DNA from: Candidatus Uhrbacteria bacterium
GTDB lineage: Bacteria > Patescibacteriota > Patescibacteriia > UBA9934 > GWF2-40-263
NCBI GenBank assembly: GCA_016188475.1
Contig: JACPHT010000008.1
Coordinates: forward strand, 34,489-98,488
Length of the DNA: 64,000 bases
Direction: 5' to 3'
Shown: positions 27,363 through 60,452 of the stretch, in pieces
Numbering within the stretch: position 1 is the first letter of the stretch
Layout: each line of letters begins with the position of its first letter
Translations under genes and position numbers: made by a program
Notes under the pieces: model-generated
The model's database searches: none
What the model saw: only the letters and a program-made list of their open reading frames with translations
Told to the model about the DNA's origin: nothing

Positions 27363-27391
27363 TTGACACATTTACGAAAATCACGTAAAAA
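27363..27391 (+). promoter_or_regulatory. Sigma70-type promoter TTGACA-N17-TAAAAA
   Basis: Same architecture as the promoters at 26306, 31006 and 33998. Confidence 0.55.
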
Positions 27392-27452
27392 ACCTTGTCC
27401 TGCGCCTTCTAATCCTGAAGGATGCTGGAAGTACAATAAAAGTGAGGAAAAC

Positions 27453-28619
27453 ATGTCTCTCTCAAGCCTTAAGTCAGAGATCATCTTCCCCTACTTTCAA
27501 TCAGTTGGGGACCTAGATCCAAATTCCGCGACCGATCGTGTTGCGACGGAAATTCTCAAATCCGGGGCCGGTGTCAAAGCAGTTGCCGCGTCAATCCAAG
27601 CTGAAGACCTTATTGGAACAGAGCTTCCGCTTGCAATCAGAAAAGCGCTAGCAATTCGCATCAGAGAAGACGCAATCGCGACAGTCGAAGTTACAACAGG
27701 CGACACGCGAAAGAATCTTCGTCCGGGATCGTTCGATGATGTGATCGGCCACGCAGACTTCAAACGTCTCATGTCAAACGCGATCACTGCCGCGCGCAAG
27801 CAAGGCGTTCCTCTTCGCCATATTCTCTTGAACGGTCCGCGCGGACTTGGCAAAACCACTCTCGCTCTTGTGATCGCAAACGAGCTAAAAGCAAAAGCGC
27901 GTTTGCTCGTTGGATCGCAATTACGAACACCGGTCGACATCACGAACGAGGTTCTGCGATGGGAAAAAGGGTCGGTCGTTTTCATTGACGAGATCCACGG
28001 CATGAGCCGTGCCGCTCAAGAAACGCTTTACAGCGTGATGGAAGACGGCCGCTTGCCAATTACCGAAAAAAGAAAAGGACACCAGACAAAGACGAGCGTT
28101 CCAGCGCCATCAATCACGATCATTGGCGCGACAACAAATCCGTCCAAGTTGCTGGAGCCTTTCCGAAATCGGTTCGGGTCAAAGTATGAACTCGGTTTCT
28201 ACTCGAACGACGAGATGAAAAAGATCGGACAACGATCAGCATCCATTCTCGGTCTGACGATCGAACCATCGGCTGTTCAAAAGCTTGTTGCGCACTGTCG
28301 CGACAATCCACGCACTCTCAACGAGTTCCTGCTCCAACTGAACGATCTGTCCATTGCTCAATCGTTATTGTCCGTCACAGTCGAACACGTTTCAGACCTT
28401 TTGAAACTCAACGGCTATGATGAACAGGGTTTGCGTCCTGAAGAACGTCGCTATGTGGAAGCGCTCAAAACGATCGGTGGAAGTGGCAGTCTCAAAACCA
28501 TAGCCGAGACGCTTGACATGGAAGTTTCAGAAGTCGAAGGAACGATCGAGCGATGGTTGGTGCGTAAAGGAATGATTCGCCGGACTCCAAAAGGCCGGCA
28601 GATCATAGAAAGGAGCTGA
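27453..28619 (+). CDS. RuvB-family AAA+ ATPase paralog with ~50-aa N-terminal extension
   Basis: Collinear with RuvB over its whole length: LRP...IGH...LLNGPRGLGKTTLALVIANEL, FIDEIHGMS, LYSVMEDG, IGATTNPS, PFRNRFG, C-terminal winged helix RTPKGRQI. SD gagga before ATG 27453. Confidence 0.7.
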   Translation: MSLSSLKSEIIFPYFQSVGDLDPNSATDRVATEILKSGAGVKAVAASIQAEDLIGTELPLAIRKALAIRIREDAIATVEVTTGDTRKNLRPGSFDDVIGHADFKRLMSNAITAARKQGVPLRHILLNGPRGLGKTTLALVIANELKAKARLLVGSQLRTPVDITNEVLRWEKGSVVFIDEIHGMSRAAQETLYSVMEDGRLPITEKRKGHQTKTSVPAPSITIIGATTNPSKLLEPFRNRFGSKYELGFYSNDEMKKIGQRSASILGLTIEPSAVQKLVAHCRDNPRTLNEFLLQLNDLSIAQSLLSVTVEHVSDLLKLNGYDEQGLRPEERRYVEALKTIGGSGSLKTIAETLDMEVSEVEGTIERWLVRKGMIRRTPKGRQIIERS

Positions 28620-28622
28620 GAA

Positions 28623-29765
28623 ATGGACTTTCCTGTTATTGTTCTAAAAACTGGAAAAGAGTCAATCCCGGACGGCCCTGCCGTAATCATAATCGCGAAA
28701 AACGGCAAGTTTCTCTTGAAGCGACTTGGAATAGTCGAGGCCGCGGTTCCGTACACAGACCAGATTTCAGGACTTGCCGAATACGAGACTTGGGCAGAGC
28801 TCAATGTTGAGAAAATTCCGTTCGAGATCTTCATCCAGGTCTTTCACTTCATGCGAACGATCTACAACAACAAGAAGACGGAATGCAATGTGATTCTGTT
28901 CTATCATCAAAAGGAAAAACAGTGGGCTGTTGTGGTTCCACCACAGATTGTCTCGCACAGCAGTGTGCACTATCAGGATGGTATCGCGGGAGCGAAAGAC
29001 GGATGGATCAAAGTTGGAACACTCCACAGTCACTGCGACTTTTCAGCAGGACATAGCGGTGGCGATCACAGAGACGAAGAGCACTTCGACGGAATCCACA
29101 TCACGCTCGGTCACGTTGACAAAGACGAACCCACATTGAGTGTAAGTCTTGTCGTCAACGGCATGCGGTTCATGAAAACTCCGCAAGAATACATTGCTGG
29201 AGTCAAACGTGTTGAAGAAAAAGAAATGGTCCAGGAATACGAAACAAAGTGGGTTGATGGCGATGATACCGCTGACGAAAGTCACGCAGAGCAAGAAGAG
29301 TCTTTGGTGACTAGCATGTGCACATTAGTGACTAGATTTCTACCGAAGTTCGGTGGTGGGGAGATCGGCGGTACTAGTAACACATATGTCAAACCCAGTT
29401 GGCCTACCAAGGTCTACAAGTACAGACCCCAAAAGCGAATCGAAGTTCCAACCAAAATGGTGGAACGCACAGTCTCCAGACTTGTGTTCGACTTTCCTGA
29501 AGGAAAAAAGGTGGAGGATTATGAATTTCCGCAGGAATGGTTGGACAATGTGAAGACATCGTACGAGTTGCACAAGATGGAACATCCTGTTCGTCCAAGA
29601 CGGAGAAGAAAATTCCGTGATGCGGGCGTTTCAAAAAGTAACGACCATCAACAAGAGTCAATAAACAATGAGGAAGAAGAAACAGCTTACACATGTATGA
29701 CCGACGATGAACTTGCGGAGATAATCTCAAGGCATCAACGTGGATGCCAAGAAGGAGAAGAATGA
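28623..29765 (+). CDS. JAB/MPN (JAMM) metallopeptidase-domain protein
   Basis: Exact JAMM motif HSHCDFSAGHSGGD (HxHx7Sx2D) at 29025-29066, with an upstream Glu. SD ggag before the ATG. Only a 3-nt gap after the RuvB-like stop. Confidence 0.7.
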   Translation: MDFPVIVLKTGKESIPDGPAVIIIAKNGKFLLKRLGIVEAAVPYTDQISGLAEYETWAELNVEKIPFEIFIQVFHFMRTIYNNKKTECNVILFYHQKEKQWAVVVPPQIVSHSSVHYQDGIAGAKDGWIKVGTLHSHCDFSAGHSGGDHRDEEHFDGIHITLGHVDKDEPTLSVSLVVNGMRFMKTPQEYIAGVKRVEEKEMVQEYETKWVDGDDTADESHAEQEESLVTSMCTLVTRFLPKFGGGEIGGTSNTYVKPSWPTKVYKYRPQKRIEVPTKMVERTVSRLVFDFPEGKKVEDYEFPQEWLDNVKTSYELHKMEHPVRPRRRRKFRDAGVSKSNDHQQESINNEEEETAYTCMTDDELAEIISRHQRGCQEGEE

Positions 29766-29766
29766 G

Positions 29767-30534
29767 ATGAAGGAACTGAACATCGTGGTAGTCGGAATAG
29801 GAGGTGTTGGAAGCGCTCTTGTTCCAAAGCTCTGTCGCTATTGTCAGCACATCAAGCCCCAGGTTCCTGTCAGTCTGGTTCTGATCGACGGAGACTTGTA
29901 CGAACAGAACAACGCGAATCGACAGTCGTTTCATCGGTTCGGAAACAAAGCAGAGGTTACGGTTGAAGCTCTCGCGCCTCAATTCGACCGAATTCAACTC
30001 TCGGCAATAGCCGAGTTCCTCAAACCCGACAACATTGACTTCATCATCGCTGAAGGCTCGATCGTTTTCCTGTGCGTTGACAACAACACATCAAGAAAGA
30101 TGGTCGATGATTTCACACACAAGTTCAAGAACATTGTCGTCATCTGCGGCGGAAACGACATGACTGACGGAAACGTACAGATCTACATCCGTCGCAAAGG
30201 CAAGGACATAACAGCATCACTCGCTGACATTCATCCAGAAATCGCTTCGCCACAAGGCAAGGCTCCGTATCAAATGAACTGCGAAGAGCTAGCGATGGCA
30301 TCATCTCCACAGCTTTTCTTCGCCAACGATTTGGTCAGCGCTCTGATGTGTCTGGTCTTCTACCAGATAATCGAAGTCAAGGACTTTCTTGACAAACCTA
30401 GGTTCGGTGAGCTTTACTTTGACATGCTACTAGGTCGCGTTGAATCTGTTGTTCGAAATCCTGTTGTCAAAGTGGCACAGGTTGATCGAAAAAAGTGTAA
30501 GGGCAAGTCCAAGCCAGCAAAGAAAGGAAGGTAG
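29767..30534 (+). CDS. E1-like ubiquitin-activating enzyme of the minimal ThiF/MoeB type. The track's alternative GTG start is 29740.
   Basis: Rossmann VVVGIGGVGS. DGDLYEQNNANRQ (DxDxxExxNxNRQ) at 29887-29925. CVDNNTSR. Catalytic-Cys loop NCEELAMASSPQ. SD ggagaag. Start is 1 nt after the JAB stop. Confidence 0.7.
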   Translation: MKELNIVVVGIGGVGSALVPKLCRYCQHIKPQVPVSLVLIDGDLYEQNNANRQSFHRFGNKAEVTVEALAPQFDRIQLSAIAEFLKPDNIDFIIAEGSIVFLCVDNNTSRKMVDDFTHKFKNIVVICGGNDMTDGNVQIYIRRKGKDITASLADIHPEIASPQGKAPYQMNCEELAMASSPQLFFANDLVSALMCLVFYQIIEVKDFLDKPRFGELYFDMLLGRVESVVRNPVVKVAQVDRKKCKGKSKPAKKGR

Positions 30535-30536
30535 TG

Positions 30537-30953
30537 ATGGCAAGGAGATACTCGGAGCAGGAACTTCTCGGCAAGACCAAGTTGAGTCTGCGAGAGGTCT
30601 GCAATGAAATCGGGCTCGAGTTCAACAATAGCATGAGCATCGACGAACTGGTCAAGGCAATCATGAAGCGTCAAGGTGGTGCGCAGAACGCAGCGCCTGC
30701 AGAAGACGACGGAGACACAACGGACAACGAAAACGAAGGCGGTTCTGTAACTGTGACCTGTGGCGCTTCGAGCCAGGTCCTGGAAGTCGCTGGCAAGTCT
30801 ATCGCGTACGTTCGCAGGGAATACGCGTCCGTTTTCAACATCGGTCGCGAAAGCAAGGCAATGCTCAACGGAGCCGAGGAGAACGACGAAAGTCACATTC
30901 TCGAAGACGGGGACAACCTCGAGTTCGTCAAGAAGAGCGGAGACAAAGCATAA
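30537..30953 (+). CDS. Rho_N-like helix-hairpin domain fused to a ThiS/MoaD-like beta-grasp ubiquitin-like domain, ending ...LEDGDNLEFVKKSG-DKA
   Basis: N-terminus SEQELLGKTKLSLREVCNEIGLEF...SIDELVKAIMKRQ, a Rho_N pattern. C-terminus has the beta-grasp DGD...EFV...SG pattern with a 3-residue tail. Its ATG sits 2 nt after the E1 stop TAG (the alternative GTG start at 30534 overlaps it). Confidence 0.55.
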   Translation: MARRYSEQELLGKTKLSLREVCNEIGLEFNNSMSIDELVKAIMKRQGGAQNAAPAEDDGDTTDNENEGGSVTVTCGASSQVLEVAGKSIAYVRREYASVFNIGRESKAMLNGAEENDESHILEDGDNLEFVKKSGDKA

Positions 30954-30976
30954 ACTAGTCTTCCGCTGGTAACTTA

Positions 30977-31005
30977 CCCACGACAAACTGTCGTGGGATT
31001 TTTTA
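30977..31005 (+). terminator. Intrinsic terminator cccacgaca-aac-tgtcgtggg + T-run
   Basis: 9-bp perfect stem with T-run, seen directly. Confidence 0.7.
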
Positions 31006-31034
31006 TTGACAAAAAATTACTTTTGATGTAAAAA
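31006..31034 (+). promoter_or_regulatory. Sigma70-type promoter TTGACA-N17-TAAAAA
   Basis: Same module as the other island promoters. Confidence 0.55.
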
Positions 31035-31081
31035 ATCTCGTCTGCCAAGAATGGCAGTGCTCATTACAATGAGGTTACAAC

Positions 31082-33790
31082 ATGAGTATTTGGGAAGAAA
31101 CCGCAATCCATCTCACTCCAGACGGCCTTGCCGAACTTCGCACTGACCGTGTGAAATCAACACCAAAAGGAACTCCACTCAGACTTAAAGTGGCACGCCG
31201 AAGTTTTGCGATAACAGACTTGCTCGGCAAACAGAGCGAACAGGAAATCAATCACCGCTTTTGTCGTTTCGTATACACAAAAGGAAATGTTACATGGTAC
31301 GTGGTCGAAGAGCCTCCGTGCATACGAACGGTAACATGGTCATTCTTAAATGAAGATTGGAAAAAAATCCAAGATCGAGGATTGATCCGCAAGTTGGGCC
31401 TGGATCCAAAAACAGATTCAAAGCGAACACGATTTCAATTCGCGTTCCCGTACACGATTTTTCTTCTGCCAATCTCGCCATATGATGGCGGGGTTTCACT
31501 CGGGTTGGGACAGATAGCGCTCCGCGCAGAACCACTACGCAGTCTTCAGGACGACCTATTCTGGGCTCCGTTTTCAAACCAAAGAAGTACAAACGGCGAT
31601 ATGTGTCTTGGAGATAAGAGACCAAGCAAAGCTAAGGCTCCGTGCGAGCTGATTGATCAGCTTATCGCTCACTGGTGGCTAAGCAATTTCAATGATCACT
31701 GGGTCGAGCGATACATAACGTATCAGGAACGAATCCCTGAAATGGCAACGCCATGGGAATGGGAATACTACAGCAAAAGGCGCCCATCATGGGTTCTTGA
31801 AGCTGATTGGATTCGAATGGGAATGACAGTCGAAGAAAAACTCGTCGTTGGCAAAAGTAATAAAACCACTATATTCGCGGATCTTGCGAGAATAGCCAAG
31901 TCTGCTCCAGAAGTGATTCCTGGATCTGACTGGAAAAAAACTAAAAAAGACGAAGCTCGCGCAACAAAAGCGACACTTATGCCTTACGGACAGACAGTTC
32001 AGGTTGGTGACGAGTTTTACTGTACAAACTCTGTGTTAGATTTCCAAGCTGGCAAAACATACAATGTAAATAATATAGAAAACTGCTCATGCGGCGATCC
32101 AGGACACACAGCCTTGTACTTTCAAGGTGGTGGATGTTTGAAGGCCTGTGATGTTCATCATTACTTTCAACGCGCTGACAAATTTCCAACACAACTGTTT
32201 CAGATTGGGTCGCATCAGATCTGGACCGGAACAAAATTCGTCCTCGTGAACAATGATGACATTACTGGAATTCGCACTGGCGCATACATGATCTCGGCGT
32301 TGATGGTAGACCAAGAAGGTGATGTCAAAATCAGAGTCTCTGGACTTTCTGGCTGGATTTACATAACGCACGAACAAACTCTCTTGCCATCTATCAGACT
32401 GTTCATTCCTGAACTCAAGGACAACACGTTTACATACGGCGAGTCCACATTGAAAGTCGGGACAACTGTCAATGTGGTAAACGGCGCAACGAAGATCCAA
32501 AATAAACTGTTACGTGTTGAATCAATAACTCAAGAGGATCAGTCATACTTCGTGACATTCGAAGGACGACAGGAACGATTTTCTCTCTTTTCGAGCGGAA
32601 CCCTTCAGATGAATTGGGAGACGACCGTTTACGAATTCTCTGAACAGCGCGTCGGATTCGGAAAAAAAATTCTTGATTTGACCACTCACACACATATTCT
32701 TGTAAGAGTGGCTGAACAACCGCTTCGCAACGGGACAATATACGAAGCACTTCACTTCGTTCATCCTGAAGGCAAGCACCCACTTGACGTTGACCTTTTA
32801 ATCGCAAACGGAAACGAAACAATTCCGGTTGTTCGCGATTCAAAATGGGTCTTCCCTGAAGCATACACTCCTGTCACGGTCATCTACCAAGATGACGCGT
32901 TGACACTTAAGTCAGGCGAAGTCTTGGTTTGCCAAATAACCGATGTTCCAGGAATCAAAAAAAACGAAGAGGTGACCATACTGTGCTTTATGGAGTCATC
33001 AATTGAAAATCGAAGGCTGATCATAGTCCTGACTGATGGACGAACGATTTGCCTTACGCAAGATACATTGAAGTACTTTGTCCGTAAGGCAAAACCAACA
33101 TGGACCGTGGAAGAGGTAAGACGACTTCCTGAAATATGGTTTAACACAAGCAAAGCGTTTGAGAAACCTCAATCGCTTAACACACTTCCAAAACCGCTCG
33201 TCAGAGCAATCTTGAAGAGAAAAAGCCTAAAGGGCTTTGGTCAGTTTGTTTCTAAGGACTTCAACGGCAACGCTCTTCATATCGGAGACATTGTGTGTAT
33301 TCGCTATATTGCGTTTTTCCAAGGAAACGGTGGTATAGAATCGCAGTACAGTAATAAGTACGCGCTGGTTGTTCATTCATATCTGAATCCAGCACAAAGA
33401 TACTATTACTCATACCTCTTCCTTGGAGTTCAAACTGCTGAAGGAAGAGTTAACATCAGAAGCGACTCTGCTGAATTTGAGAAAGTGGATCCTGAATACC
33501 AAGGTCAAGAAGCCAGAAGACAAATGGCTATCAACATAAACGATTATCTTCAAGTGTGCACCTTCGATGATAGTTTCACTACTATGATCGAAGAAGGGTC
33601 GCTTGTCAGGATTCGTCATGATGTAAATCCAAAGTACGGCCGCGGAAACGTGCAAGCAAACGAAGTCGGAAGAGTTCGTCGACTTATTGAAAACGAGGAG
33701 GTCGTTGTTGACTTCCCCGCAGAAACTGAATGGATCGGACTGATCAACGAGATTGAAATCTGTCCATTTGAGCCTAGCCAACATGTTTAG
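31082..33790 (+). CDS. Large hypothetical protein A (902 aa), paralog of 34082-36682
   Basis: Many conserved blocks with paralog B (PPCIRTV..W, TRFxxAFPYTIF, WEWE, LLPSI..IP.LKDNTFT.G, TILCF). No known motif recognised. Confidence 0.6.
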   Translation: MSIWEETAIHLTPDGLAELRTDRVKSTPKGTPLRLKVARRSFAITDLLGKQSEQEINHRFCRFVYTKGNVTWYVVEEPPCIRTVTWSFLNEDWKKIQDRGLIRKLGLDPKTDSKRTRFQFAFPYTIFLLPISPYDGGVSLGLGQIALRAEPLRSLQDDLFWAPFSNQRSTNGDMCLGDKRPSKAKAPCELIDQLIAHWWLSNFNDHWVERYITYQERIPEMATPWEWEYYSKRRPSWVLEADWIRMGMTVEEKLVVGKSNKTTIFADLARIAKSAPEVIPGSDWKKTKKDEARATKATLMPYGQTVQVGDEFYCTNSVLDFQAGKTYNVNNIENCSCGDPGHTALYFQGGGCLKACDVHHYFQRADKFPTQLFQIGSHQIWTGTKFVLVNNDDITGIRTGAYMISALMVDQEGDVKIRVSGLSGWIYITHEQTLLPSIRLFIPELKDNTFTYGESTLKVGTTVNVVNGATKIQNKLLRVESITQEDQSYFVTFEGRQERFSLFSSGTLQMNWETTVYEFSEQRVGFGKKILDLTTHTHILVRVAEQPLRNGTIYEALHFVHPEGKHPLDVDLLIANGNETIPVVRDSKWVFPEAYTPVTVIYQDDALTLKSGEVLVCQITDVPGIKKNEEVTILCFMESSIENRRLIIVLTDGRTICLTQDTLKYFVRKAKPTWTVEEVRRLPEIWFNTSKAFEKPQSLNTLPKPLVRAILKRKSLKGFGQFVSKDFNGNALHIGDIVCIRYIAFFQGNGGIESQYSNKYALVVHSYLNPAQRYYYSYLFLGVQTAEGRVNIRSDSAEFEKVDPEYQGQEARRQMAININDYLQVCTFDDSFTTMIEEGSLVRIRHDVNPKYGRGNVQANEVGRVRRLIENEEVVVDFPAETEWIGLINEIEICPFEPSQHV

Positions 33791-33817
33791 CTAAGACCGC
33801 AATGTCAGCCCAAATTC

Positions 33818-33958
33818 ATGATGGGCAAAGCGCAACACGGCGAGCATGGTGTCTTCAAAGAACTTCTCAATGACGGCGTGGTTGTCGTGGACTTTCCAAA
33901 CCATCAAGGGTGGTTTGGAGACATAAACGACATCCAACCAGCCGGTACAACGAAATAG
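33818..33958 (+). CDS. Small ORF (46 aa), MMGKAQHGEHGVFKELLNDGVVVVDFPNHQGWFGDINDIQPAGTTK
   Basis: Resembles the C-terminal block of protein A (GRVRRLIENEEVVVDFPAETEWIGLINEIEI). No clear SD. Confidence 0.3.
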   Translation: MMGKAQHGEHGVFKELLNDGVVVVDFPNHQGWFGDINDIQPAGTTK

Positions 33959-33972
33959 GTCATGTTCTCTGT

Positions 33973-33996
33973 CCTGCCTAAAAGGCAGGATTTTTT
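33973..33996 (+). terminator. Intrinsic terminator cctgcc-taaaa-ggcagg + T-run
   Basis: Seen directly. Confidence 0.65.
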
Positions 33997-33997
33997 C

Positions 33998-34026
33998 TTG
34001 ACAAAAAAACAAAAAAGCGGTAAAAG
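33998..34026 (+). promoter_or_regulatory. Sigma70-type promoter TTGACA-N17-TAAAAG
   Basis: Same module. SD aggaaag before ATG 34082. Confidence 0.55.
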
Positions 34027-34081
34027 AATAGGCCGCATTTTGCGGTCGCCCTTTACAAAAACCTTTCAAAGGAAAGTGAAA

Positions 34082-36682
34082 ATGGCTGGAAAACTTATCG
34101 TCTTGAGTGACAAGGAAACCGCAACGCTCACAGATGACAGTGGAAGTTCAACTGTTCCGCTGTCTGCAATAGCCACAAGCGATTCAAAAGGTACTCTTCT
34201 TCCAACCGATTGTCGGATTCACATTACCAACGGTCTGGCAAGTGTGTTTGTTATCGAACAACAGCCATGCGTTCGTGATGTGAACTGGAACACAAGTAAA
34301 GATGAATGGAAAAATCTCATCTCTCGCGGAGCAAAATCATTCGCGCAAGTGAAAGGAAACGAAACAAAAACACGGTTCCGTCTCGCCTTTCCATACACAA
34401 TTTTCATTGTTCGAATGGAAGGAATATGTGTTACGAGCATACGCGTTTTCTTCCGTAGCCACACGATCTCAACACCGACTGATTATCTTCAGCAAGCAGG
34501 GCTTCTAAAAGACGACACTCTGGTTGTTGAAGATCAAAAACAGATTCTTCATCATGGCATGACACAAGCCAGTACTGTTAACGTGGCTGTTGAATACTTC
34601 TGGCATCAAACACTCGGAACAGGTGAACTGATCGGAACTGTTCATCCAGACGTTCCTGAAGTGTCAAGTGTTTGGGAATGGGAATCGGCTTCGCGCAAGC
34701 ATCAAGACTGGATTCTCAAAGCACAGTGGGAAAAAACCGATCTCAACTTGAAAACCGCATCGCAAGCAATGTTGCAGTTACCTGATGCGAAAGATGGTGA
34801 AGACCAGACTTTCGCCACAGTCGCCGCGCGAATCCGTCATAGTGTGCCAAACAAGAAAACGCGCGACCACGAATTGATCGAGAGTCCATGTGTTTCCATA
34901 ATGCTTGGAACAACTCGTTTACGACAAGGCGATACGATCGTTTCTAGCAAACGCCAGTTCGGATGCAAAAAAGACAAGCAATACCTTGTGCTTGGATTCT
35001 ACGAACGAACAAGCAAAGGCGTTGTGCACGCAAGACTTGATGGAGTTGCCAATCCTGTTCCGATTGGAACTTCCAAAGGCTTGGTTGATTTCAAGCTCTT
35101 ACAACCTGAACGAGAAGTCGTGAGTGAGATAACGTACAATGGAGTCGTGTTCAAAACAGGAACAAAATTCTGTGTCTCATCAGGCGAAGACATAGGTTTG
35201 TTAGCAACAGACATTGAATACATAATAAAGAAACTCGAGGTTGATTCTGAGGGAGATGCCAGAGTCAAGATTGCTGACTTAAATACTTGGTTCTATATCA
35301 CATACGATGGCGGAAAACTTCTGCCGTCAATATATCAAAACATTCCGAGTCTCAAAGACAATACTTTCACTTTCGGCAAGCAGAAAATGAGTGTTGGGAC
35401 GTTTGTGGAAATCACTGGAAGCGCGGCAAAAGTTCAAGACACTCTTCTCCGAGTTGCTTCGATCGCTCAAGAGCGCGAAGCATACATTGCCACGTTTGAA
35501 GGACATGAAGAAAAAATCACCATTTACAAAAATGGTGAGCGTCAAATCGATTGGAACACAGTAACATACGAATTCTCGGACAAGCGAGTTGTGCTTGGCA
35601 ACAAAGTTCTGGATCTGACTGATTGCGAATCTATGCTTATAACAATATCAGAAGATTCTCAAGAAGTCGGAAAAATGCACAAAGTGAAAGGCCTTGTTCA
35701 TCCAACAGATGGACACAGGTTTGATGTGAACCTCGTTGTTGACGATAAGCAGATCCCAGTGATCAAACATTCAAACTGGGTCTTCAGAATCAAGCACGAA
35801 CAAGTATCTGACAGATATGATGATGGAGCTTTGACTCTGCAATCAGGTGAAGTCCTCATATGCGTGGATACAATCACTGGTCTGACCAAGGACGAGGAGC
35901 TGACTATTCTGTGTTTTGGCAAAAACAAAACAACCAAAGATCTCACTGACATCATTTTCTCTGATGGACGAGCGATAAACATGACTCAAGCGTCTCTCAA
36001 GCTATTCTCTCGCAAAGATGGGAAGCCGTGGAGTGAGAAAAAAATTGCAAAACTCCCGCAAGGTTCTCCTCCAACGACTCGAGTGCAACAAGGTGAACGC
36101 TGTAGAGTAACGACTAATAACATCAACGGTGAAATCGGAACTGTAACTGACAAATCGTACGACGATAGGTTTGTAAAATTCGACAATCCTCAACCAAACG
36201 GTCGTGGACCGACAATTACAGAAGGCTGGTTTCTGTATAAATACCTTGAACGTCTTGATAAGTCCAAAGTCACATGGTGTTTCTCCAAAAATGCTAGAGT
36301 TGAAAAACGAAGCGATGGGACTTTAATCCAACTTCCAACAGAGCTGATAATAGAGCTCACAACCATTCAACGAATACCCACAAAACTGACGGATTTGTTT
36401 GGGAACTCTTTGTCTGTTGGCGACATCGTCGTGCCAATTTATCAAGGATTCACTAAAGAATGTCCTAGACGAGTAATCGGAATTCCGATGCTAGTCGTTC
36501 ACTACAGTTCAAGCGGTTCTCCATTCTTGTTTCTCTGGGCTGGATCTACACACAAACCTGGAGTGTTAAGCCGCGACTGTCGTGATTTCAATACAATAAC
36601 AATAGCCTTCAAAGATCGTCTTAACGAACTCTACGTCAACCCGCCGAAAGATTGTGAAAAAATCACTTTCATCGAAGCCTAA
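34082..36682 (+). CDS. Large hypothetical protein B (~866 aa from ATG 34082). The track start 33962 lies upstream of the promoter and is rejected.
   Basis: Paralog of A. Confidence 0.6.
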   Translation: MAGKLIVLSDKETATLTDDSGSSTVPLSAIATSDSKGTLLPTDCRIHITNGLASVFVIEQQPCVRDVNWNTSKDEWKNLISRGAKSFAQVKGNETKTRFRLAFPYTIFIVRMEGICVTSIRVFFRSHTISTPTDYLQQAGLLKDDTLVVEDQKQILHHGMTQASTVNVAVEYFWHQTLGTGELIGTVHPDVPEVSSVWEWESASRKHQDWILKAQWEKTDLNLKTASQAMLQLPDAKDGEDQTFATVAARIRHSVPNKKTRDHELIESPCVSIMLGTTRLRQGDTIVSSKRQFGCKKDKQYLVLGFYERTSKGVVHARLDGVANPVPIGTSKGLVDFKLLQPEREVVSEITYNGVVFKTGTKFCVSSGEDIGLLATDIEYIIKKLEVDSEGDARVKIADLNTWFYITYDGGKLLPSIYQNIPSLKDNTFTFGKQKMSVGTFVEITGSAAKVQDTLLRVASIAQEREAYIATFEGHEEKITIYKNGERQIDWNTVTYEFSDKRVVLGNKVLDLTDCESMLITISEDSQEVGKMHKVKGLVHPTDGHRFDVNLVVDDKQIPVIKHSNWVFRIKHEQVSDRYDDGALTLQSGEVLICVDTITGLTKDEELTILCFGKNKTTKDLTDIIFSDGRAINMTQASLKLFSRKDGKPWSEKKIAKLPQGSPPTTRVQQGERCRVTTNNINGEIGTVTDKSYDDRFVKFDNPQPNGRGPTITEGWFLYKYLERLDKSKVTWCFSKNARVEKRSDGTLIQLPTELIIELTTIQRIPTKLTDLFGNSLSVGDIVVPIYQGFTKECPRRVIGIPMLVVHYSSSGSPFLFLWAGSTHKPGVLSRDCRDFNTITIAFKDRLNELYVNPPKDCEKITFIEA

Positions 36683-51827: not shown

Positions 51828-52280
51828 ATGCAAATTCCACAAAACTTTTTATCTTACGAACACAAGACGCTTATTCTTGTCTGTGATAGTTCACACGCAA
51901 AATTCTATCAAGCTTACGAGCGAAACTTCGAACTTATTGAAGAAATTAAAAACGATCGCATGAAGTTGGAAGACACGGAGCGATACACAACTCAAACTGG
52001 TGGCGGAATTCTTTCAAAAGTCGAAGATGAGGATTTCAAAGAACGTGAAACAAAAATATTTTATAAAAAGCTTGCGGGAATTTTGTTTGACCGTTTTCAT
52101 GATGAAAAAAATTCAAAACTAATTCTTGTTGTTCCAGAAGGTGACAAAAATGTTCTTGTTGATTCGCTTCACGAAAAAGTTAAAAAGTCTCTCGTGCACG
52201 CGATCGGAAAACAACCGCCAAAAATTCCAGACGCTCAATTGATAAAATTTATAGATGAAGGACGAAAAAATCCTCAATGA
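51828..52280 (+). CDS. Host-attachment-protein-like (eRF1-like fold?) small protein
   Basis: TLILVCDSSHAKFYQ ... TTQTGGGILSK. Tentative. Confidence 0.3.
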   Translation: MQIPQNFLSYEHKTLILVCDSSHAKFYQAYERNFELIEEIKNDRMKLEDTERYTTQTGGGILSKVEDEDFKERETKIFYKKLAGILFDRFHDEKNSKLILVVPEGDKNVLVDSLHEKVKKSLVHAIGKQPPKIPDAQLIKFIDEGRKNPQ

Positions 52281-53833
52281 CAATCTGAAAGCGTCAATAT
52301 AGTCGCCATACCATTTGTGAAAAATGGATCACCTGAAAAATTACTTCCAAGAATCGGAGAGACGAATTGTATTGTTCGAACATTATCAACAACTCCTGCA
52401 TCCTGAAGATTGGAGCTAAGAAGTTCTCGTTCCGTATCAATATCAGGAGCTATACGATGTGTTATTCCCCACTTGATACCGATGTCTAAACTTGCTGTTC
52501 CTACGTAAATCTCACCTTGAGGAGTCGAATATCCTGTATCCCAAAACCTCGCATGATGACGTTCGCGCGCAGATTTTTCATTTGTTTCCTTTTCAAAACC
52601 AAAATCGTTTGGTTGTGAATTATAAAAAGATGGCGTTATCGGAGCGGTCGGATAACTCGCATTATTAAGCGCGGCGAGCGCGATTTCACCGATTGAATCT
52701 AGCGATGGACTGTCAGAGAGAAACCATCCTGCTTTTGAAAAACCATCAACAAGACAACCGTTAATAGGAGCGACGATAATAATATTTACCGGCTCCTGTG
52801 GTTCACCAAGCAGTGTTTCAGAATATTTTGGCAAATTATTTTCCGCAAACAACAACGAAACATCACCAGACAATAATTCACTGTGTGTTGCTCGTTCTGT
52901 TTGGATTGTGAAAACCGGAGCTCTGAAAAAAAAAATTATTACGACGACAATAATGCTCAAGATACTTGGAAGAACAAAAGAGATATGAAATTTTTTCCAT
53001 TCGATCGGAAAACGTTTTTCAGAAAGCAATTCAATCACAATGACAGCAAAAAGAACTCCAGCTAAACCAACAAGATTACCTGCGAGAACATCGCTTATAT
53101 AATGGACACCAAGATACACGCGACTAAAATCAACAAGACCAACAAAAACCGTAAAACATAAAACAATAATGAAACGGGTTTTCCAAGTTTCCAGCTTTCG
53201 CAAACAAAGATAGACAAGGAATCCATAAAACACAGCAACGGTGGTTGCGTGTCCGCTTGGAAAAGAAAAAGAATCTTCAACAATCGCGCGCAAGCTAGGT
53301 CGAGCGCGGTGGAAAAAAGTTTTTCCGATGTAAGTGACACTTTCGCTTAGCGCAATAGCCAACCAAATTCCCACCGCAAGCAATCTATGCCGCTTGTACC
53401 AAAACACGATGGAAAGAACTATTGTCGCAAAAATAATAACACTTGCTTCAGCAAAAAGAGTGGCTCCGTAAAAAAACGACAGCAGACTAATACTGCGAAA
53501 TGCATAAAGAAGATTGGCGACTCTGATGTCAGCGGCAATCAGAGGATCATTTGAAAGAAAGTCTTGTGTAATTCCTAACAAAACAAACACAACAATAAGG
53601 AACGCTAACACAAGAAGCGTTAAAGCAAGTCCTGTGAAACGATTGGTGGCAAGACGAGCCTTCAATCGCTTATATAAGACAGGGTATTTCTTCTCCATTT
53701 TTTCAAACGGAGAATATCCAAAAAAACCTTCTATGGTTTTACATAAACGATTTATTAAAGTCGGTTTTATTTTTTTCTTTTCCATATATCCGACAACTTC
53801 TTGATTTTTGAATTCATCAAGTTTATCAACCAA
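52274..53833 (-). CDS. PAP2-family membrane phosphatase with extracytoplasmic C-terminal domain
   Basis: KTFFHRARP, SFPSGHAT, SRVYLGVHYISD. Confidence 0.7.
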   Translation of the reverse strand: MVDKLDEFKNQEVVGYMEKKKIKPTLINRLCKTIEGFFGYSPFEKMEKKYPVLYKRLKARLATNRFTGLALTLLVLAFLIVVFVLLGITQDFLSNDPLIAADIRVANLLYAFRSISLLSFFYGATLFAEASVIIFATIVLSIVFWYKRHRLLAVGIWLAIALSESVTYIGKTFFHRARPSLRAIVEDSFSFPSGHATTVAVFYGFLVYLCLRKLETWKTRFIIVLCFTVFVGLVDFSRVYLGVHYISDVLAGNLVGLAGVLFAVIVIELLSEKRFPIEWKKFHISFVLPSILSIIVVVIIFFFRAPVFTIQTERATHSELLSGDVSLLFAENNLPKYSETLLGEPQEPVNIIIVAPINGCLVDGFSKAGWFLSDSPSLDSIGEIALAALNNASYPTAPITPSFYNSQPNDFGFEKETNEKSARERHHARFWDTGYSTPQGEIYVGTASLDIGIKWGITHRIAPDIDTERELLSSNLQDAGVVDNVRTIQFVSPILGSNFSGDPFFTNGMATILTLSDCH

Positions 53834-55538: not shown

Positions 55539-57071
55539 TCATAACGTTTGTTCCATAGGTTTGCCTTCTTCAAACCCAGACGAGGTTTGCACGCCAACAA
55601 CTACGTTTTGAAAAAACATTTCTAAATTTGAAACGCCAGAATAAGTGCACGCGCTTCGCAAACCAGCAGTGATTTCATCCAAAATATCTTCAGCACTTTC
55701 CTGTCCAGATTTCAAATACATTTTTGATTGACTCACACCTTCTTCAAAAAACGTTCGACGTGCGATTTCAAACGGATCCAATTGGCGACTTCGATCCAAC
55801 ACCGCGCGACTCGAAGCCATTCCAAATTGTTCCTTAAACAAATTTCCATCTGAATCGCGTTGAACATCGGCCGGGCTTTCAAATGTCCCAACAAACCAAG
55901 AGCCAAACATTGCGTGACTCGCGCCTGCCGCAAGCGCCAAAACAACGTCGCGGGGAGATCGAACACCTCCATCAGCCCAAACCTGTGCTCCGCGATTTCT
56001 AGCGATAGCTGACACTCGATGTACGGCAGAAAACTGAGGCCGGCCGACTCCTGTTGTCATGCGTGTTTTGCATGCGGCTCCAGGGCCAACTCCGACTTTC
56101 AAAATATTGGCGCCGGCTTCAATAAAATCATCAGCGGCAACGGCGGTTACGATATTTCCTGCGGCCAAAGGTTTGTCAGAACCCAAAATCGCGCGAGTCG
56201 TTCGAATCGCATCAAGCATTTGTTTTTGATGACCATGGGCCGTATCAAGAACAATCACATCAACTCCGATTTGAATCAACCGATCAACAGTATCTGCAAC
56301 GCGATCGCGAACACGCACAGCAACACACGTCATCAGTTCACTTTTTGTGTTCAAGGCAGGCTGATACATTGTCGCGCGAACTGCTCCTTTTCGCGTCATC
56401 ACCCCAGCAAGTGTGCCATCTGGATGAATTACAGGAACGATGGATAATCGACGCTCCGTAAGAAAATGAAAAATTTCTTTTGGTAACATCGTGCTTGAGA
56501 CGCTGATCAGTTGACGAGTCATTACGTCTCCAAGACGTGAATACCGATCGCGACGGTACGAATCCTTTTCAGTAAAAATTCCAACCGGACGATTGTTGTC
56601 GTCAGTAATAACAACAGCTTCATGCGAACGTTTGTGAATCAAGTTGAGCGCTGTTTGAACAGACTGATCTTCTTTCAATACAACAGGCGTTTCATAAACA
56701 TGATGACACTGCTTCACATATCGAACAATATCCTCGATTCGCTCAAATGGAATGTCTTGAGGTAACACGACTAGGCCGCCGCGACGCGTAACTGTTTCGG
56801 CCATGCGTTTACCGGCAACTGCTGTCATGTTTGAAACAACTATTGGAATTTTCGTTCCAAGATTTCCAACAGGAGTCAAATCAACATCCATTCGAGATTG
56901 AATTTCAGAATACAATGGCATTAAAAAAACGTCGTTATAAGTGAGCTCTTTTTGTTCATCTTCAGGTCGCAAGAATCGCATAGAACTCCAGCTTACAACA
57001 AGAATAAAAAAAGCGCATCCTTGTTTGAATGCGCAGTTAGAACTACTGGACAATGAGATGATCCGACTCAA
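55539..57071 (-). CDS. guaB: IMP dehydrogenase family (start probably MRFLRPED; N-terminal extension doubtful)
   Basis: GVGPGAACKTR catalytic loop. CBS pair. TIM barrel. Confidence 0.75.
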   Translation of the reverse strand: MSRIISLSSSSNCAFKQGCAFFILVVSWSSMRFLRPEDEQKELTYNDVFLMPLYSEIQSRMDVDLTPVGNLGTKIPIVVSNMTAVAGKRMAETVTRRGGLVVLPQDIPFERIEDIVRYVKQCHHVYETPVVLKEDQSVQTALNLIHKRSHEAVVITDDNNRPVGIFTEKDSYRRDRYSRLGDVMTRQLISVSSTMLPKEIFHFLTERRLSIVPVIHPDGTLAGVMTRKGAVRATMYQPALNTKSELMTCVAVRVRDRVADTVDRLIQIGVDVIVLDTAHGHQKQMLDAIRTTRAILGSDKPLAAGNIVTAVAADDFIEAGANILKVGVGPGAACKTRMTTGVGRPQFSAVHRVSAIARNRGAQVWADGGVRSPRDVVLALAAGASHAMFGSWFVGTFESPADVQRDSDGNLFKEQFGMASSRAVLDRSRQLDPFEIARRTFFEEGVSQSKMYLKSGQESAEDILDEITAGLRSACTYSGVSNLEMFFQNVVVGVQTSSGFEEGKPMEQTL

Positions 57072-57687
57072 GGTCTGGATTATTATCCACAGCTGGAAGC
57101 TTTGCCTTCTTGGGTTTACAAACGTACTTCTGTTGCCAATGTTTTCCGTCTGGCATTAGATCCGCATCTGTTATTACGGCGTGACCGTCACGGAAAATCC
57201 ACAGTCGCAGTCCCGCGCTCACGAACTTAGCGATCGCTTCCTTATCTTTCGATTGAAGCTCTTTGAATTTCTGCATTGCCATTGCAGCGTCAGCTTCCGC
57301 ATCAGCCGCTTGTCGCATTGCGTGGTTCATCGCAACAACAGCTTCCTGCTTTTCAGCTTCAGCCTGCTTCTGCTTTTCTTTCGCTTGATCTCGTTCCTGC
57401 TTTGACTCTTCAACTTCAGCCTGAAGCATTTGCGAATCGAGAAGATTCTTTATCTCTTCGTCAGACAAACGACCGCCAAGAACCTGTTCGAGTGTTTGTT
57501 CAAGCTGTTCTGCCTTTGCAGTTTGCTCACTAGCTTGCTTTTGTTTCTGAACAAGCACGACAAGAAAGACAATTACTAGCAGAGCCATGAAAAGAAACAA
57601 AACCATCACTGTGATCAAAGCTCCGCCGACAATGTCAGATTGCGCGTCTCCGTGGCTCGCGGTTGTGACTGATTCAAGCTCGCTCAT
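57043..57687 (-). CDS. Single-TM protein with long Q/E/K/A coiled coil and ~60-aa C-terminal domain; partner of the MotA/ExbB-like protein
   Basis: GC-elevated. 4-nt overlap with the upstream gene. Confidence 0.45.
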   Translation of the reverse strand: MSELESVTTASHGDAQSDIVGGALITVMVLFLFMALLVIVFLVVLVQKQKQASEQTAKAEQLEQTLEQVLGGRLSDEEIKNLLDSQMLQAEVEESKQERDQAKEKQKQAEAEKQEAVVAMNHAMRQAADAEADAAMAMQKFKELQSKDKEAIAKFVSAGLRLWIFRDGHAVITDADLMPDGKHWQQKYVCKPKKAKLPAVDNNPDLESDHLIVQ

Positions 57688-58736
57688 GGCGCTCGCCTCA
57701 CTTCGTTTCTTGTCTTCCTTCCTCCGTCTTCAGACGAAACATGAGGAACGAGACGAACACCGCCTTCGACGTATTGCACGTCAAAGTGCATTGTCCCGAT
57801 CTGCGAAAAACGCTCAAGCGCCTCTCGCAAAAGTGGAGCGAGTTGCACATAGACGTCTTCAACGGTACCACTCGCGTGTCCGATATGCACGGCTGAATTT
57901 TCAAGCGTGTTATTCATTCGCGCGCTGAACTCCATCATCTGTCCAACAAGATGACGAAGGGGCTCATGAAGCTCGGAAATATTTGCGAACTTGAGAACGG
58001 TCGTAACAGTCGCCGGCAGAGCCAAGCGCGAAAGAATCTTGTCTTGGATCCAAGTCTCAATTGCAGTGATGCTAGCCATCTCTTTTCCCATTCGATGGTC
58101 AACCCACTGACCGATCCATGCTTTAGCTCCCCAACCGATCACGCTTGTGAAAAACGCGGTCGAGACAGTCCAAAGATTGATCTTGTGCAAATTCGCAGTT
58201 ACTGCCTTGATGAATTCACCACTGTTGGAATTGCCAAGGTCAGAGTCTGGAAATTGAAAGAGCACTGTCGCCTGCGCCATGAACGTGATAAGTCCGATCA
58301 GTGTTCCTATGATTCCTTCAAAACCGATCACATTGATGTGACTTGTTATGCTGGAATATCGCTCACATGTTGAACGACGAAGTGTTGCAAACTCTGCTTG
58401 AACGAACGCGAAGATAGCTGACTCGTCAGTCGCAAGAGCAATTTTTCGAAACAACGCCCTTGCTAGATTTATAATCGGCCCACGTTCTTGCCGTTCAATG
58501 TTGAGCTTGGGAACATTTTCCCTATCAACGACATTTGGCACTGTCACATCAGGAATCGTGTACTCAACAAGTTTTGGCATGCGAAAGAGAATGATCGCAA
58601 GCTTCGCGATCATGTACGCGAGGAAACTCCACGCAACAATGTTCAGTGTTGTGATGATGTCCCCGTCGGAGCGTTCATAAGTGATCGCGCCTGTCGCAAA
58701 TAGGATCAAAAGAGACCAGACTGTGATGGCCATCAT
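57684..58736 (-). CDS. MotA/TolQ/ExbB-family proton-channel-like protein with ~130-aa C-terminal tail
   Basis: 2+2 TM topology. GFEGIIGTLIGLITFMAQ signature region. Confidence 0.5.
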   Translation of the reverse strand: MMAITVWSLLILFATGAITYERSDGDIITTLNIVAWSFLAYMIAKLAIILFRMPKLVEYTIPDVTVPNVVDRENVPKLNIERQERGPIINLARALFRKIALATDESAIFAFVQAEFATLRRSTCERYSSITSHINVIGFEGIIGTLIGLITFMAQATVLFQFPDSDLGNSNSGEFIKAVTANLHKINLWTVSTAFFTSVIGWGAKAWIGQWVDHRMGKEMASITAIETWIQDKILSRLALPATVTTVLKFANISELHEPLRHLVGQMMEFSARMNNTLENSAVHIGHASGTVEDVYVQLAPLLREALERFSQIGTMHFDVQYVEGGVRLVPHVSSEDGGRKTRNEVRRAP

Positions 58737-58845
58737 TAGATTTCTCCTGACGCGATTTATGAATCGCGACCGAGCATATAATCACAATAAGTCGATTGTG
58801 TCAAACGAAAAACCACCCTTTTTACGGAGTGGTTTTTACGCGCAA

Positions 58846-59166
58846 TTAATTGCGCTCTTCGCGTGGGCGTGCAACGTTCACAACGATCTGACGACCGCCG
58901 AGTGTGCTGCCATCGAGTGCATCGACGGCCTTTTGCGCGTCCGCCTCATTGGCGAACTCGACAAAGCCGAAACCACGGCTGCGACCTGTAAACTTGTCAG
59001 TCATGACGCGAGCTGAAGTCACTTCCCCAAATTGGGAGAAGAGCTCCTGAAGCTGTGCATCATCGGTCGCCCATGGCAGGCTGCCCACAAATAGCTTGTT
59101 CTGCATAGAGTAGAAGCTGTTTGTGCTAAGAATTAACGAACCGCTCCTACCTTCTGGAGAGAACAT
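58846..59166 (-). CDS. RRM-domain RNA-binding protein
   Basis: RNP2 LFVGSL. RNP1 RGFGFVEF. Confidence 0.8.
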   Translation of the reverse strand: MFSPEGRSGSLILSTNSFYSMQNKLFVGSLPWATDDAQLQELFSQFGEVTSARVMTDKFTGRSRGFGFVEFANEADAQKAVDALDGSTLGGRQIVVNVARPREERN

Positions 59167-59586: not shown

Positions 59587-59662
59587 GCCGTCGTAGCTCA
59601 GCTGGTAGAGCACATCCATGGTAAGGATGGGGTCTCGGGTTCAATTCCCGACGACGGCTCCA
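59587..59662 (+). tRNA. tRNA-Thr (anticodon GGT)
   Basis: Acceptor gccgtcg/cgacggc perfect. Anticodon loop atggtaa. CCA encoded. Confidence 0.8.
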
Positions 59663-59740
59663 GAACACTTCATAAATACGAAGTGTTTTATTGTTGACAA
59701 ATGGCTAAAGCCAAAGTTTTATGTTACACTAACATTAATT

Positions 59741-60376
59741 ATGAGTTATCCAAAAGCAATTAAAAAATCAGAACAACAAAAAGTGATCAATCTATACAGT
59801 ATTAAACTTTGGAGTGCTAAAAAAATTGCAGAACATTTTGGCATAGGCCTTCAAACAGTATATAGATTTCTACGAGACAAAAAAGTCTCGAGACGAGGAC
59901 CAAGAGAAGCGTCCGAAGCTTTCTTTAAACACAAACCGGAATCATTCAAAATAAAACATAGATTGAATAAAAAAGAAGAGGAATTAAAAATTGCTGGAAT
60001 AATGCTTTATTGGGCGGAGGGTTCAAAAGGATATTCTGTGGTGGATTTTGTGAATAGTGATCCTTTCATGTGTCTCATTTTTATGAGATTTTTGCGTGAA
60101 GTGTGTGGAATTGACGAACGGAAACTAAGAGGGTATATTTACTGCCATCCAGGACAAGATTTGAAAAAAATAACTAACTTTTGGAGTGGAAGCTTAAAAA
60201 TTCCAGTTAAACGATTTTCAAAGCCTTATATTAGGAAACCTGTTGAAGGCAAAACGAACAAACGACCTGCTCGCATGCAATATGGTGTCGTTCATATTCG
60301 TTACGGAGACAAAAAGTTACTTAATCAAATTTTAGTTTGGATTCAGGAATACTTGAAATGTTTCGTGGGTCGGTAG
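59741..60376 (+). CDS. HTH + LAGLIDADG-like (single-motif) endonuclease-like protein; 3' end overlaps tRNA-Tyr by 10 nt
   Basis: HTH LWSAKKIAEHFGIGLQTVYRFL. LYWAEGSKG...FVNSDPFMCLIFMRFLREVCG parallels my recollection of I-CreI LAGFVDGDGS...FQVTQKTQRRWFLDKLVDEIG. Confidence 0.35.
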   Translation: MSYPKAIKKSEQQKVINLYSIKLWSAKKIAEHFGIGLQTVYRFLRDKKVSRRGPREASEAFFKHKPESFKIKHRLNKKEEELKIAGIMLYWAEGSKGYSVVDFVNSDPFMCLIFMRFLREVCGIDERKLRGYIYCHPGQDLKKITNFWSGSLKIPVKRFSKPYIRKPVEGKTNKRPARMQYGVVHIRYGDKKLLNQILVWIQEYLKCFVGR

Positions 60377-60452
60377 CGAAGCGGTTAAACGCACGACACT
60401 GTAAATGTCGCGGCTTATGCCTTCGTAGGTTCGAATCCTACCCGGCCCACCA
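60367..60452 (+). tRNA. tRNA-Tyr (anticodon GTA) with long variable arm
   Basis: Acceptor gggtcgg/ccggccc. Anticodon loop ctgtaaa. Variable arm cggcttatgccttcg. CCA encoded. Confidence 0.75.

Follow-up and report, generated by a model that had tools for sequence, protein, structure and literature searches.

We analyzed a 64,000-nucleotide (nt) stretch of DNA from Candidatus Uhrbacteria bacterium (contig JACPHT010000008.1), hereafter the window, and concentrated on 2 adjacent genes of its minus strand, gene A (57684-58736, 350 amino acids [aa]) and gene B (57043-57687, 214 aa). The combined results make it probable that the 2 proteins form a proton-driven complex of the MotAB/ExbBD/TolQR type, presumably with an A5B2 composition, that serves as a lineage-specific, chromosomal housekeeping energizer of the cell envelope and not as a defense system. 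The evidence comprises the membership of A in the MotA/ExbB/TolQ superfamily, traced through distant homologues and a predicted fold, the conservation of its pore motifs and of an aspartate in B, the strict coupling of the 2 genes, the boundaries of their operon, and the purifying selection acting on both.

Genes A and B form a translationally coupled operon

The region 57043-59166 contains 3 minus-strand open reading frames (ORFs), encoding an RRM protein, A, and B, at the positions given in the original prediction, which had been made from the letters of the window alone. The A/B junction is a 4-nt overlap, ATGA, by which gene B is translationally coupled to gene A. This overlap had been recognized earlier but worded as that of the partner's stop codon; it is the TGA stop of A that shares letters with the ATG start of B. 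A promoter-like site lies at 58776-58804 (minus strand), with a -35 hexamer TTGACA (58804-58799), a 17-nt spacer carrying a TGn element, and a -10 hexamer TTATAT (58781-58776). This site, which would drive transcription of the pair, was found by eye and its hexamers were then checked against the sequence; the consensus scan did not list it because the -10 hexamer has no A at position 2. A Shine-Dalgarno motif, AGGAG (58744-58748, minus strand), stands 7 nt 5′ of the ATG of A, and an intrinsic terminator follows gene B at 57003-57034 (minus strand; 8-bp GC-rich stem, then a U7 run; -12.5 kcal/mol, z = -3.7), beyond which the IMPDH gene begins. Together, the promoter-like site, the Shine-Dalgarno motif, and the terminator indicate that A and B constitute a self-contained bicistronic operon.

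Protein A is a very divergent member of the MotA/ExbB/TolQ superfamily by transitive and structural links

Homologues of A were grouped into 13 clusters at 90% identity in a search of 5.8 billion proteins and into 21 clusters when 1.84 billion representatives were searched exhaustively with a profile, and the members are linked over the full length of the protein with profile E-values from 1e-16 to 1e-160. A contig scan with the 13-sequence alignment detected the family in 7 of 185,579 species genomes, all of them Patescibacteria-type metagenome-assembled genomes (MAGs), and the named sources of its members are Uhrbacteria or Patescibacteria in every case. When family members were scanned individually, 14 of 31 matched PF01618 (MotA_ExbB) at E ≤ 1, and 3 scored above its gathering score of 22.9 bits (P0030, 30.6; P0028, 28.9; P0032, 24.3). 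These 3 proteins are full-length homologues of the window A (E = 6e-49, 4e-51, and 2e-42, respectively), and their matches, mapped through the family alignment, fall on A residues 91-213 (58098-58466, minus strand), that is, the helix before transmembrane helix 3 (TM3), TM3, the outer loop, and TM4. PF01618 describes this same part of the canonical proteins. The window protein thus appears to belong to PF01618 by transitivity through distant members, with no direct match. Some members also gave weak matches to ZorA, TolQ, PomA, MotP, and ExbB models, no subfamily being favored.

The AlphaFold2 (AF2) model of A (predicted local distance difference test score [pLDDT] 69.5, good over residues 1-240) places helices at residues 2-22, 27-51, 105-159, and 188-237. 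This arrangement bears out the 2+2 transmembrane layout proposed at the outset, together with the segment GFEGIIGTLIGLITFMAQ that had been singled out as a glycine-rich TM3 region. A TM1-TM2 hairpin (residues 3-51; 58584-58730, minus strand), with L31, W36, Y41, M42, and K45 conserved in TM2, is followed in the model by an extended proline-rich loop, a long helix running into TM3, and a short outer helix; TM4 then extends into the cytoplasm and leads into a poorly defined helical module that ends in a beta hairpin. This cytoplasmic C-terminal module (residues 214-350; 57687-58097, minus strand) is modeled at low pLDDT as helices plus a hairpin of the pattern F-x-V-x-Y-V-x-G-G, in which G325 and G326 are nearly invariant, and it matched no known family. 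Conservation in the cytoplasmic parts of A extends to P54, P62, and P67, found in 28-29 of ~30 sequences, and to D104-E105. The N-terminal transmembrane element, cytoplasmic helical domain, and pore-lining C-terminal transmembrane hairpin of the model make up the fold of the superfamily, and its Foldseek matches were almost all ExbB, TolQ, ZorA, PomA, or MotA, the best being energizers of the TolQ/ExbB type. The transitive Pfam matches, the fold searches, and the conserved pore residues described below place A, as originally predicted, in the MotA/TolQ/ExbB superfamily, of which it is a genuine and very divergent member on this transitive and structural evidence.

The predicted ion path is conserved in A and B

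The pore helices of A were delimited in the family alignment as TM3 (residues 136-159, VIGFEGIIGTLIGLITFMAQATVL; 58260-58331, minus strand) and TM4 (residues 188-210, LWTVSTAFFTSVIGWGAKAWIGQ; 58107-58175, minus strand). In TM3, G141 is present in 30 of 30 sequences, G144, T145, and F152 in 29 of 30 each, and G148 in 28 of 30. Conservation in TM4 is comparable, with A194 in 30 of 31, T197 in 29 of 31, S198 (S or T) in 31 of 31, G201 in 30 of 31, and K205 (K or R) in 31 of 31. In characterized motors, TolQ T145/T178 and ExbB T148/T181 form a polar threonine ring around the essential aspartate of TolR (Asp23) or ExbD (PMC12215075). Residues G141, G144, T145, G148, and T197/S198 of A would correspond to the T145/T178 ring region of TolQ, in a spatial arrangement that is putative; this correspondence draws on a non-significant hhalign alignment for TM3 and on a by-eye alignment for TM4. 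The former compared the A family with a 2-sequence TolQ+ExbB profile and aligned only the GxxGT motif, at a probability of 1.5%, which is not significant. It set GFEGIIGTLIGL opposite PYIGLFGTVWGIM of TolQ, and T145 of A opposite T145 of TolQ, within the TolQ segment 138-151 (PYIGLFGTVWGIMH); by eye, S198 of A stands opposite TolQ T178.

Searches, and the gene directly 3′ of each A gene, supplied the homologues of B, of which 17 were examined. All 17 share the same plan, consisting of a short N-terminal segment, an aspartate motif, a single transmembrane helix, a helical spacer, and a small C-terminal domain. The second aspartate of the motif, [D/E]-x3-D-[I/A/L], lies in the first turn of the transmembrane helix and is conserved in 17 of 17 proteins, including the partners of A proteins that are only 23-30% identical to the window A. 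In the window B, the motif is GDAQSD (residues 13-18; 57634-57651, minus strand), with D18 at the cytoplasmic start of the helix. By analogy with MotB D32, ExbD D25, and TolR D23, we infer that D18 is a putative proton-binding carboxylate. The N-termini of several homologues are strongly basic (MRRHKRR, MRRERRRR, and MAHRRRR), which favors an orientation with the N-terminus inside and the C-terminal domain outside the cell.

Protein B carries a long helical spacer and a small, apparently novel head

In the AF2 model of B, helices at residues 13-70 and 76-150 are followed by a 4-strand beta domain at 153-190, and the transmembrane helix covers residues 19-46 (57550-57633, minus strand). The single transmembrane helix and small C-terminal domain of the original prediction are therefore upheld by the model, while the coiled coil that it had placed between them is not borne out by a heptad test. 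The spacer (residues 47-158; 57214-57549, minus strand), rich in A, E, Q, and K and extracytoplasmic if the orientation above is right, showed an occupancy of heptad a/d positions no better than that of shuffled sequences over most of its length: residues 76-112 form an E/K/Q-rich helix without a hydrophobic seam, and residues 113-150 have an alanine-based seam. A canonical coiled coil is thus not supported, and the spacer is a long helix that is not demonstrably a coiled coil.

MotB, ZorB, ExbD, and TolR each bear a peptidoglycan-binding or TolR-like head. The head of B (residues 159-214; 57046-57213, minus strand) is a small beta domain with the pattern G-L-R-L-W ... I-T-D ... W-x-x-x-Y-x-C, and measures 54-63 aa among homologues. 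A Pfam scan of 9 B homologues yielded no OmpA or MotB_plug match, and the ExbD and TonB_C families were not among the top 25 matches listed for B homologues. The window B itself gave only coiled-coil and transmembrane noise in Pfam, NCBIfam, and PADLOC scans. A Foldseek search of its model against the PDB returned nothing significant, the best hit (E = 0.42) being among fragments resembling single beta-propeller blades, and an hhalign comparison with TolR+ExbD was uninformative. These sequence and model comparisons suggest that the head is novel and not OmpA-like, TolR/ExbD-like, or TonB_C-like, in agreement with the earlier description of B as a non-OmpA, non-TolR partner. The head could be delimited in 13 of 14 homologues and has exactly one cysteine in each of these 13 (C190 in the window B, 57118-57120); 3 B proteins translated later have a cysteine there as well. 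This residue might join the 2 subunits of a B dimer by a disulfide or bind B covalently to a target.

The pair is conserved as a unit in changing housekeeping surroundings

Gene A is followed by gene B in every locus examined (~12 distinct loci), so the conservation of the pair in relatives, proposed as a check in the original prediction, was confirmed. The 2 genes overlap by 1-8 nt, except that one gene call in locus L003 implies a longer overlap. Such strict translational coupling across the family indicates a complex of fixed stoichiometry. The order RRM-A-B-IMPDH is shared by the window and loci L018, L008, L003/L004, and L005, with an extra ORF between RRM and A in L008 and another between B and IMPDH in L005. 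Elsewhere the pair stands in Wzy_C-GroES-GroEL-A-B-MamF-RF1 (L001/L002, with NusA and YidC further upstream in L001), in NusA-YidC-LPG synthase-unknown-Wzy_C-A-B-GroES-GroEL (L006 and L007), after FtsE/FtsX (L022/L023), or alone or beside unrelated neighbors (L014, L020, and L024). The neighbors are thus housekeeping genes that change between lineages, and only A-B itself is conserved. Against an 86%-identical orthologue in L008, the ratio of nonsynonymous to synonymous substitution rates (dN/dS) was 0.18 in A, 0.06 in B, and 0.05 in the IMPDH gene used for comparison. A and B are therefore real genes under purifying selection.

Two pair-bearing MAGs (L011 and L013) are titled "uncultured Gammaproteobacteria". 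L013 and L003 are parts of one contig, and L003 shows the RRM-A-B-IMPDH synteny of the Uhrbacteria loci; these labels are therefore probably wrong. In the lineage of P0026, a distant homologue, FtsE-FtsX lies ~700 bp upstream of the pair (608-1516 in L022 and 282-2186 in L023). It is the only envelope- or division-related neighbor that might hint at function, and it does not occur beside the pair in other lineages.

The same neighborhoods bear on 2 other explanations. According to one, which we regard as unlikely, the complex is a stator with a cytoplasmic output: the B head would be only a wall anchor, as in MotB, and the proline-rich loop and C-terminal module of A would drive a cytoplasmic or membrane partner, for example a pilus or a component of division or of surface motility. 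The topology of A is of the 4-TM MotA type and not of the 3-TM ExbB/TolQ type, its cytoplasmic residues are strongly conserved (P54, P62, and P67; D104-E105; G325-G326), and FtsE-FtsX lies upstream of the pair in 1 lineage, all of which would suit such an output. However, no partner gene is conserved beside the pair, no flagellar or pilus genes occur among the window genes that were scanned or annotated, the B head resembles no known peptidoglycan-binding domain in the Pfam and Foldseek comparisons, and the C-terminal module of A was modeled with low confidence.

According to the other, suggested in the original prediction, the pair belongs to a Zorya-like or other membrane-triggered anti-phage system, in which a disturbance of the envelope would be sensed by the motor and reported to effectors whose genes lie elsewhere. 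A few distant A-family members do match ZorA models weakly (best E = 4.6e-5), ZorA is among the structural matches of A, A has an extended C-terminal region, and the family is patchily and narrowly distributed. Yet the ZorA matches occur in only 2-3 distant members, at the same level as their generic MotA_ExbB matches, the window A had no PADLOC ZorA match, and the ZorB score reached only E = 0.6. The tail of ZorA is a pentameric coiled coil of ~70 nm, and ZorB has a peptidoglycan-binding domain (PMC11946911); the A tail consists of ~140 aa of short helices and a beta hairpin, and B lacks a ZorB-type peptidoglycan-binding domain. No ZorC/D/E-like, nuclease, helicase, or other effector gene, and in particular none of the ZorC/D-like partners that the original prediction had proposed to look for, was found beside the pair at the ~12 loci, where the neighbors were RRM, IMPDH, GroES/EL, YidC, NusA, RF-1, Wzy_C, and FtsEX. 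The low dN/dS values also speak against a defense role, as does the lack of family members in the phage and plasmid collections searched. The Zorya reading fails every Zorya-specific test, namely the models, the tail, the peptidoglycan-binding domain, and the effector genes, and with context and selection pointing the same way we consider a defense function highly improbable.

The preferred reading is an envelope energizer in a monoderm host

Patescibacteria are monoderm (PMC11665869), and the window encodes Mur ligases, MraY, FtsW, MurG, and FtsX; from these peptidoglycan synthesis genes it follows that a wall is present for B to reach. The window genes that were Pfam-scanned or carried a precomputed Pfam annotation, a set that does not cover every ORF, included no flagellar, Ton/Tol, or pilus gene. 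The earlier statements that flagellar and TonB genes are missing here and that the host lacks an outer membrane are consistent with these findings. An envelope-directed housekeeping role is favored because the pair is chromosomal, syntenic, and strongly constrained and because a wall is present; we hold this role with modest confidence, and the complex may serve as a secretion-type or other envelope energizer.

In the proposed mechanism, A would form a pentameric ring with a polar belt made up of T145 in TM3 and T197/S198 in TM4. The axle would be the transpore helix of B, in which the invariant Asp18 alternately takes up and releases a proton. The flow of protons, or of another cation, through A-B would be converted into rotation or force. 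B would thereby join 2 jobs, that of the axle, as in TolR, ExbD, and MotB, and that of the reach-out arm, as in TolA and TonB, and a wall or surface-layer (S-layer) component of the monoderm Uhrbacterium would serve its head as an anchor point or as a substrate to act on. We also suggest, tentatively and with more doubt than confidence, that A-B represents a previously unrecognized class of 5:2 motor in monoderm candidate phyla radiation (CPR) bacteria. Force would then be transduced by the B axle itself, a helical stalk that spins or pulls, ends in the cysteine-bearing head, and relays membrane energy across the wall to a surface structure such as the S-layer, to a wall-remodeling enzyme, or to an epibiont's host-attachment apparatus. 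If this were true, A-B would relay energy in the manner of Tol/Ton in a cell without an outer membrane.

Several results weigh against the interpretation of A-B as an envelope energizer. The window A gave nothing at E ≤ 1 in Pfam, NCBIfam, and PADLOC scans, E. coli TolQ, ExbB, and MotA scored only ~2 bits with the family profile in hmmsearch, and PDB sequence searches with 3 family profiles returned nothing significant. The best PDB matches were MotA (8gqy, E = 0.33) and PomA (E = 2.4), both confined to the expected TM3 region. To these is added the non-significant alignment with TolQ+ExbB described above. The kink prolines of the pore helices (P138/P187 in TolQ) are conserved in Tol, Exb, and Mot proteins and form no part of the family definition. 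At the positions of these TolQ/ExbB prolines A has G138 and W207, so the prolines are not kept, and position 138 is G in 16 family members, A in 8, S in 4, and P in 1. On the side of B, the N-terminus of the window protein is net negative, which leaves its topology uncertain from the window sequence alone, and the spacer varies from 35 to 166 aa among homologues, a nearly 5-fold spread that is a poor match for a target at constant distance. Finally, no partner or effector gene recurs as a third member beside the pair at the ~12 loci, and no output partner was identified.

Part of this evidence could also be read as the absence of a motor. A would then have a degenerate MotA-like fold that acts as a passive ion channel or scaffold, and B would be a structural protein, helical and anchored in the membrane as DivIC/FtsB or TolA are, with a structural role for its aspartate. 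The very weak sequence similarity to working motors, the missing kink prolines, and the lack of a known output would be expected in that case. Nevertheless, the near-invariant GxxGT motif, the T/S of the last transmembrane helix, and the aspartate of the partner helix are the ion-path residues of characterized motors (PMC12215075), and the fixed-stoichiometry complex indicated by the A-B coupling counts against this explanation too. We therefore judge it quite unlikely, less so only than defense, and retain the envelope energizer as the preferred interpretation of A-B.

Ion-driven 5:2 motors (Mot, Exb, Tol, Agl, Gld, and Zor) have mostly been studied as carriers of inner-membrane energy to the outer membrane, the flagellar rotor, or defense effectors. 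A conserved and constrained pair of the motor type in a CPR lineage that is monoderm, ultrasmall, and without flagella would extend the known motor repertoire, and it prompts one to ask which process beyond the membrane of a Patescibacterium requires mechanical energy. The literature searched contained no link between Uhrbacteria or CPR bacteria and MotA/ExbB-type motors. Proteins of the A and B families are annotated as hypothetical; because Pfam, NCBIfam, and PADLOC do not recognize the family from the window protein, motors of this kind escape annotation, which is a practical gap. The immediate impact is moderate, since the family is small, is confined to a single lineage, and has no known output.

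Neighboring genes and other features of the window

The RRM gene (58846-59166, minus strand; RRM_1 match, E = 3.7e-27) probably starts at 59106 and encodes 86 aa, judging from its relatives. A promoter-like site of its own lies at 59225-59197, and a hairpin of -16.1 kcal/mol with a U-run separates the gene from A. The RRM protein thus adjoins the pair, as first described, but its gene is a separate transcription unit. A functional link between A-B and the RRM protein was rejected in view of these separate units and of the more distant lineages, where the RRM gene does not stand beside the pair. The GC content is 0.484 for A and 0.474 for B against a gene mean of 0.426 (standard deviation 0.054), ranking 8th and 11th of the 56 tabulated genes; the RRM gene, at 0.539, ranks 4th, and other blocks of the window reach 0.60. 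The elevated GC reported for the pair is accordingly present but mild, ~1 standard deviation above the mean. With this small excess, the synteny kept in relatives, and the absence of phage or plasmid homologues, horizontal transfer or a GC island was rejected.

Four further regions and a tRNA gene pair were recorded elsewhere in the window. A GC-rich block at 26419-36682 (plus strand) begins with a gene (26419-27300) of GC 0.60 and third-codon-position GC 0.74 that has no Pfam match. In order, the block contains a RuvB_N/AAA-like protein of 423 aa, an unmatched protein of 380 aa, a ThiF/E1-like protein, and an ORF of 139 aa, and it ends with 2 ORFs of ~900 aa without a Pfam match (31082-33790 and 33962-36682); it may be a foreign or defense island. 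On the minus strand at 146-3270, a reverse transcriptase gene (RVT_1, 2011-3270) lies near an AAA_5 ATPase gene (146-1279), with tRNA-Gln just downstream (3937), and the arrangement could be a retroelement or a defense module based on reverse transcriptase. The gap between tRNA-Thr(ggt) and tRNA-Tyr is filled by an ORF of 252 aa (59618-60376, plus strand; region 59587-60452) that overlaps both ends. It has a GC content of 0.356 and encodes a helix-turn-helix-like segment followed by LYWAEGSKG, and may be a homing-endonuclease-like insertion in the tRNA cluster. A Host_attach/baeRF_family12 protein of 150 aa (51828-52280, plus strand) adjoins a PAP2 + LssY_C membrane protein of 519 aa (52274-53833, minus strand), and 2 tRNA-Lys(ttt) genes lie ~120 bp apart at 15492-15759 (plus strand).

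Comparison with known systems

The A-B pair shares features with each of the characterized 5:2 systems. Like TolQ-TolR(-TolA) and ExbB-ExbD(-TonB), it combines GxxGT and T/S pore motifs in A with a partner whose transmembrane helix bears an aspartate, and the layout of B, with a transmembrane helix, a long charged or alanine-rich helix, and a small C-terminal domain, recalls domains I-III of TolA. In contrast to the Tol and Ton proteins, A has 4 transmembrane helices instead of 3 and no kink prolines, B lacks an SHLS motif and any domain resembling those of TolR or TonB_C, and there is no separate TolR/ExbD or TolA/TonB. TolB, Pal, and TonB-dependent transporters are likewise missing, the host has no outer membrane (PMC11665869), and the flanks of the A-B loci examined contained no Tol/Ton-type genes. 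Clear orthology to a housekeeping Tol or ExbBD system with its usual partners, named in the original prediction as a refutation, was not observed. The pair is neither a canonical Tol/Ton system nor Zorya.

The likeness to MotAB and PomAB lies in the 4-TM topology of A with its cytoplasmic loop between TM2 and TM3, in the position of the partner aspartate at the very start of the transmembrane helix, as in MotB D32, and in the adjacent, translationally coupled genes. B differs from their partners in lacking an OmpA-like peptidoglycan-binding domain, the loop of A is proline-rich and unrelated in sequence, the NCBIfam PomA and MotP matches are weak and limited to distant family members, and the scanned or annotated part of the window has no flagellar genes. 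ZorAB resembles the pair in superfamily, in the presence of ZorA among the fold matches, and in the extra C-terminal cytoplasmic sequence of the A subunit. It differs by the long coiled-coil tail, the ZorB-type peptidoglycan-binding domain, and the ZorC/D genes, none of which A-B possesses, and by the housekeeping context of A-B. The GldLM and PorLM motors likewise have a dimeric single-TM subunit in the form of a long stalk that projects well away from the membrane, and the stalk of GldLM has been proposed as the rotating, force-delivering element (PMC9389320). However, GldL has 2 transmembrane helices, GldM has multiple periplasmic domains, the hosts are diderm Bacteroidota, and A-B has no sequence or family relationship to them.

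TolQ-like pentamers with TPH-vWA partners, a precedent for the proposed complex, combine an aspartate-bearing transpore helix (TPH) with a vWA head and have no TolR (PMC12204202). They are found in diderm Proteobacteria and Verrucomicrobia, whereas A-B belongs to a monoderm CPR host and carries a novel beta domain of ~56 aa on a helical spacer. Both arrangements pair a MotA/TolQ-like gene with a single partner that joins an aspartate helix to a non-canonical external domain, with no tolR or exbD gene. Together, these comparisons suggest that the motor core of A-B is recognizable and that what is new, along with the absence of a known output, is the architecture of the partner and the envelope type of the host.

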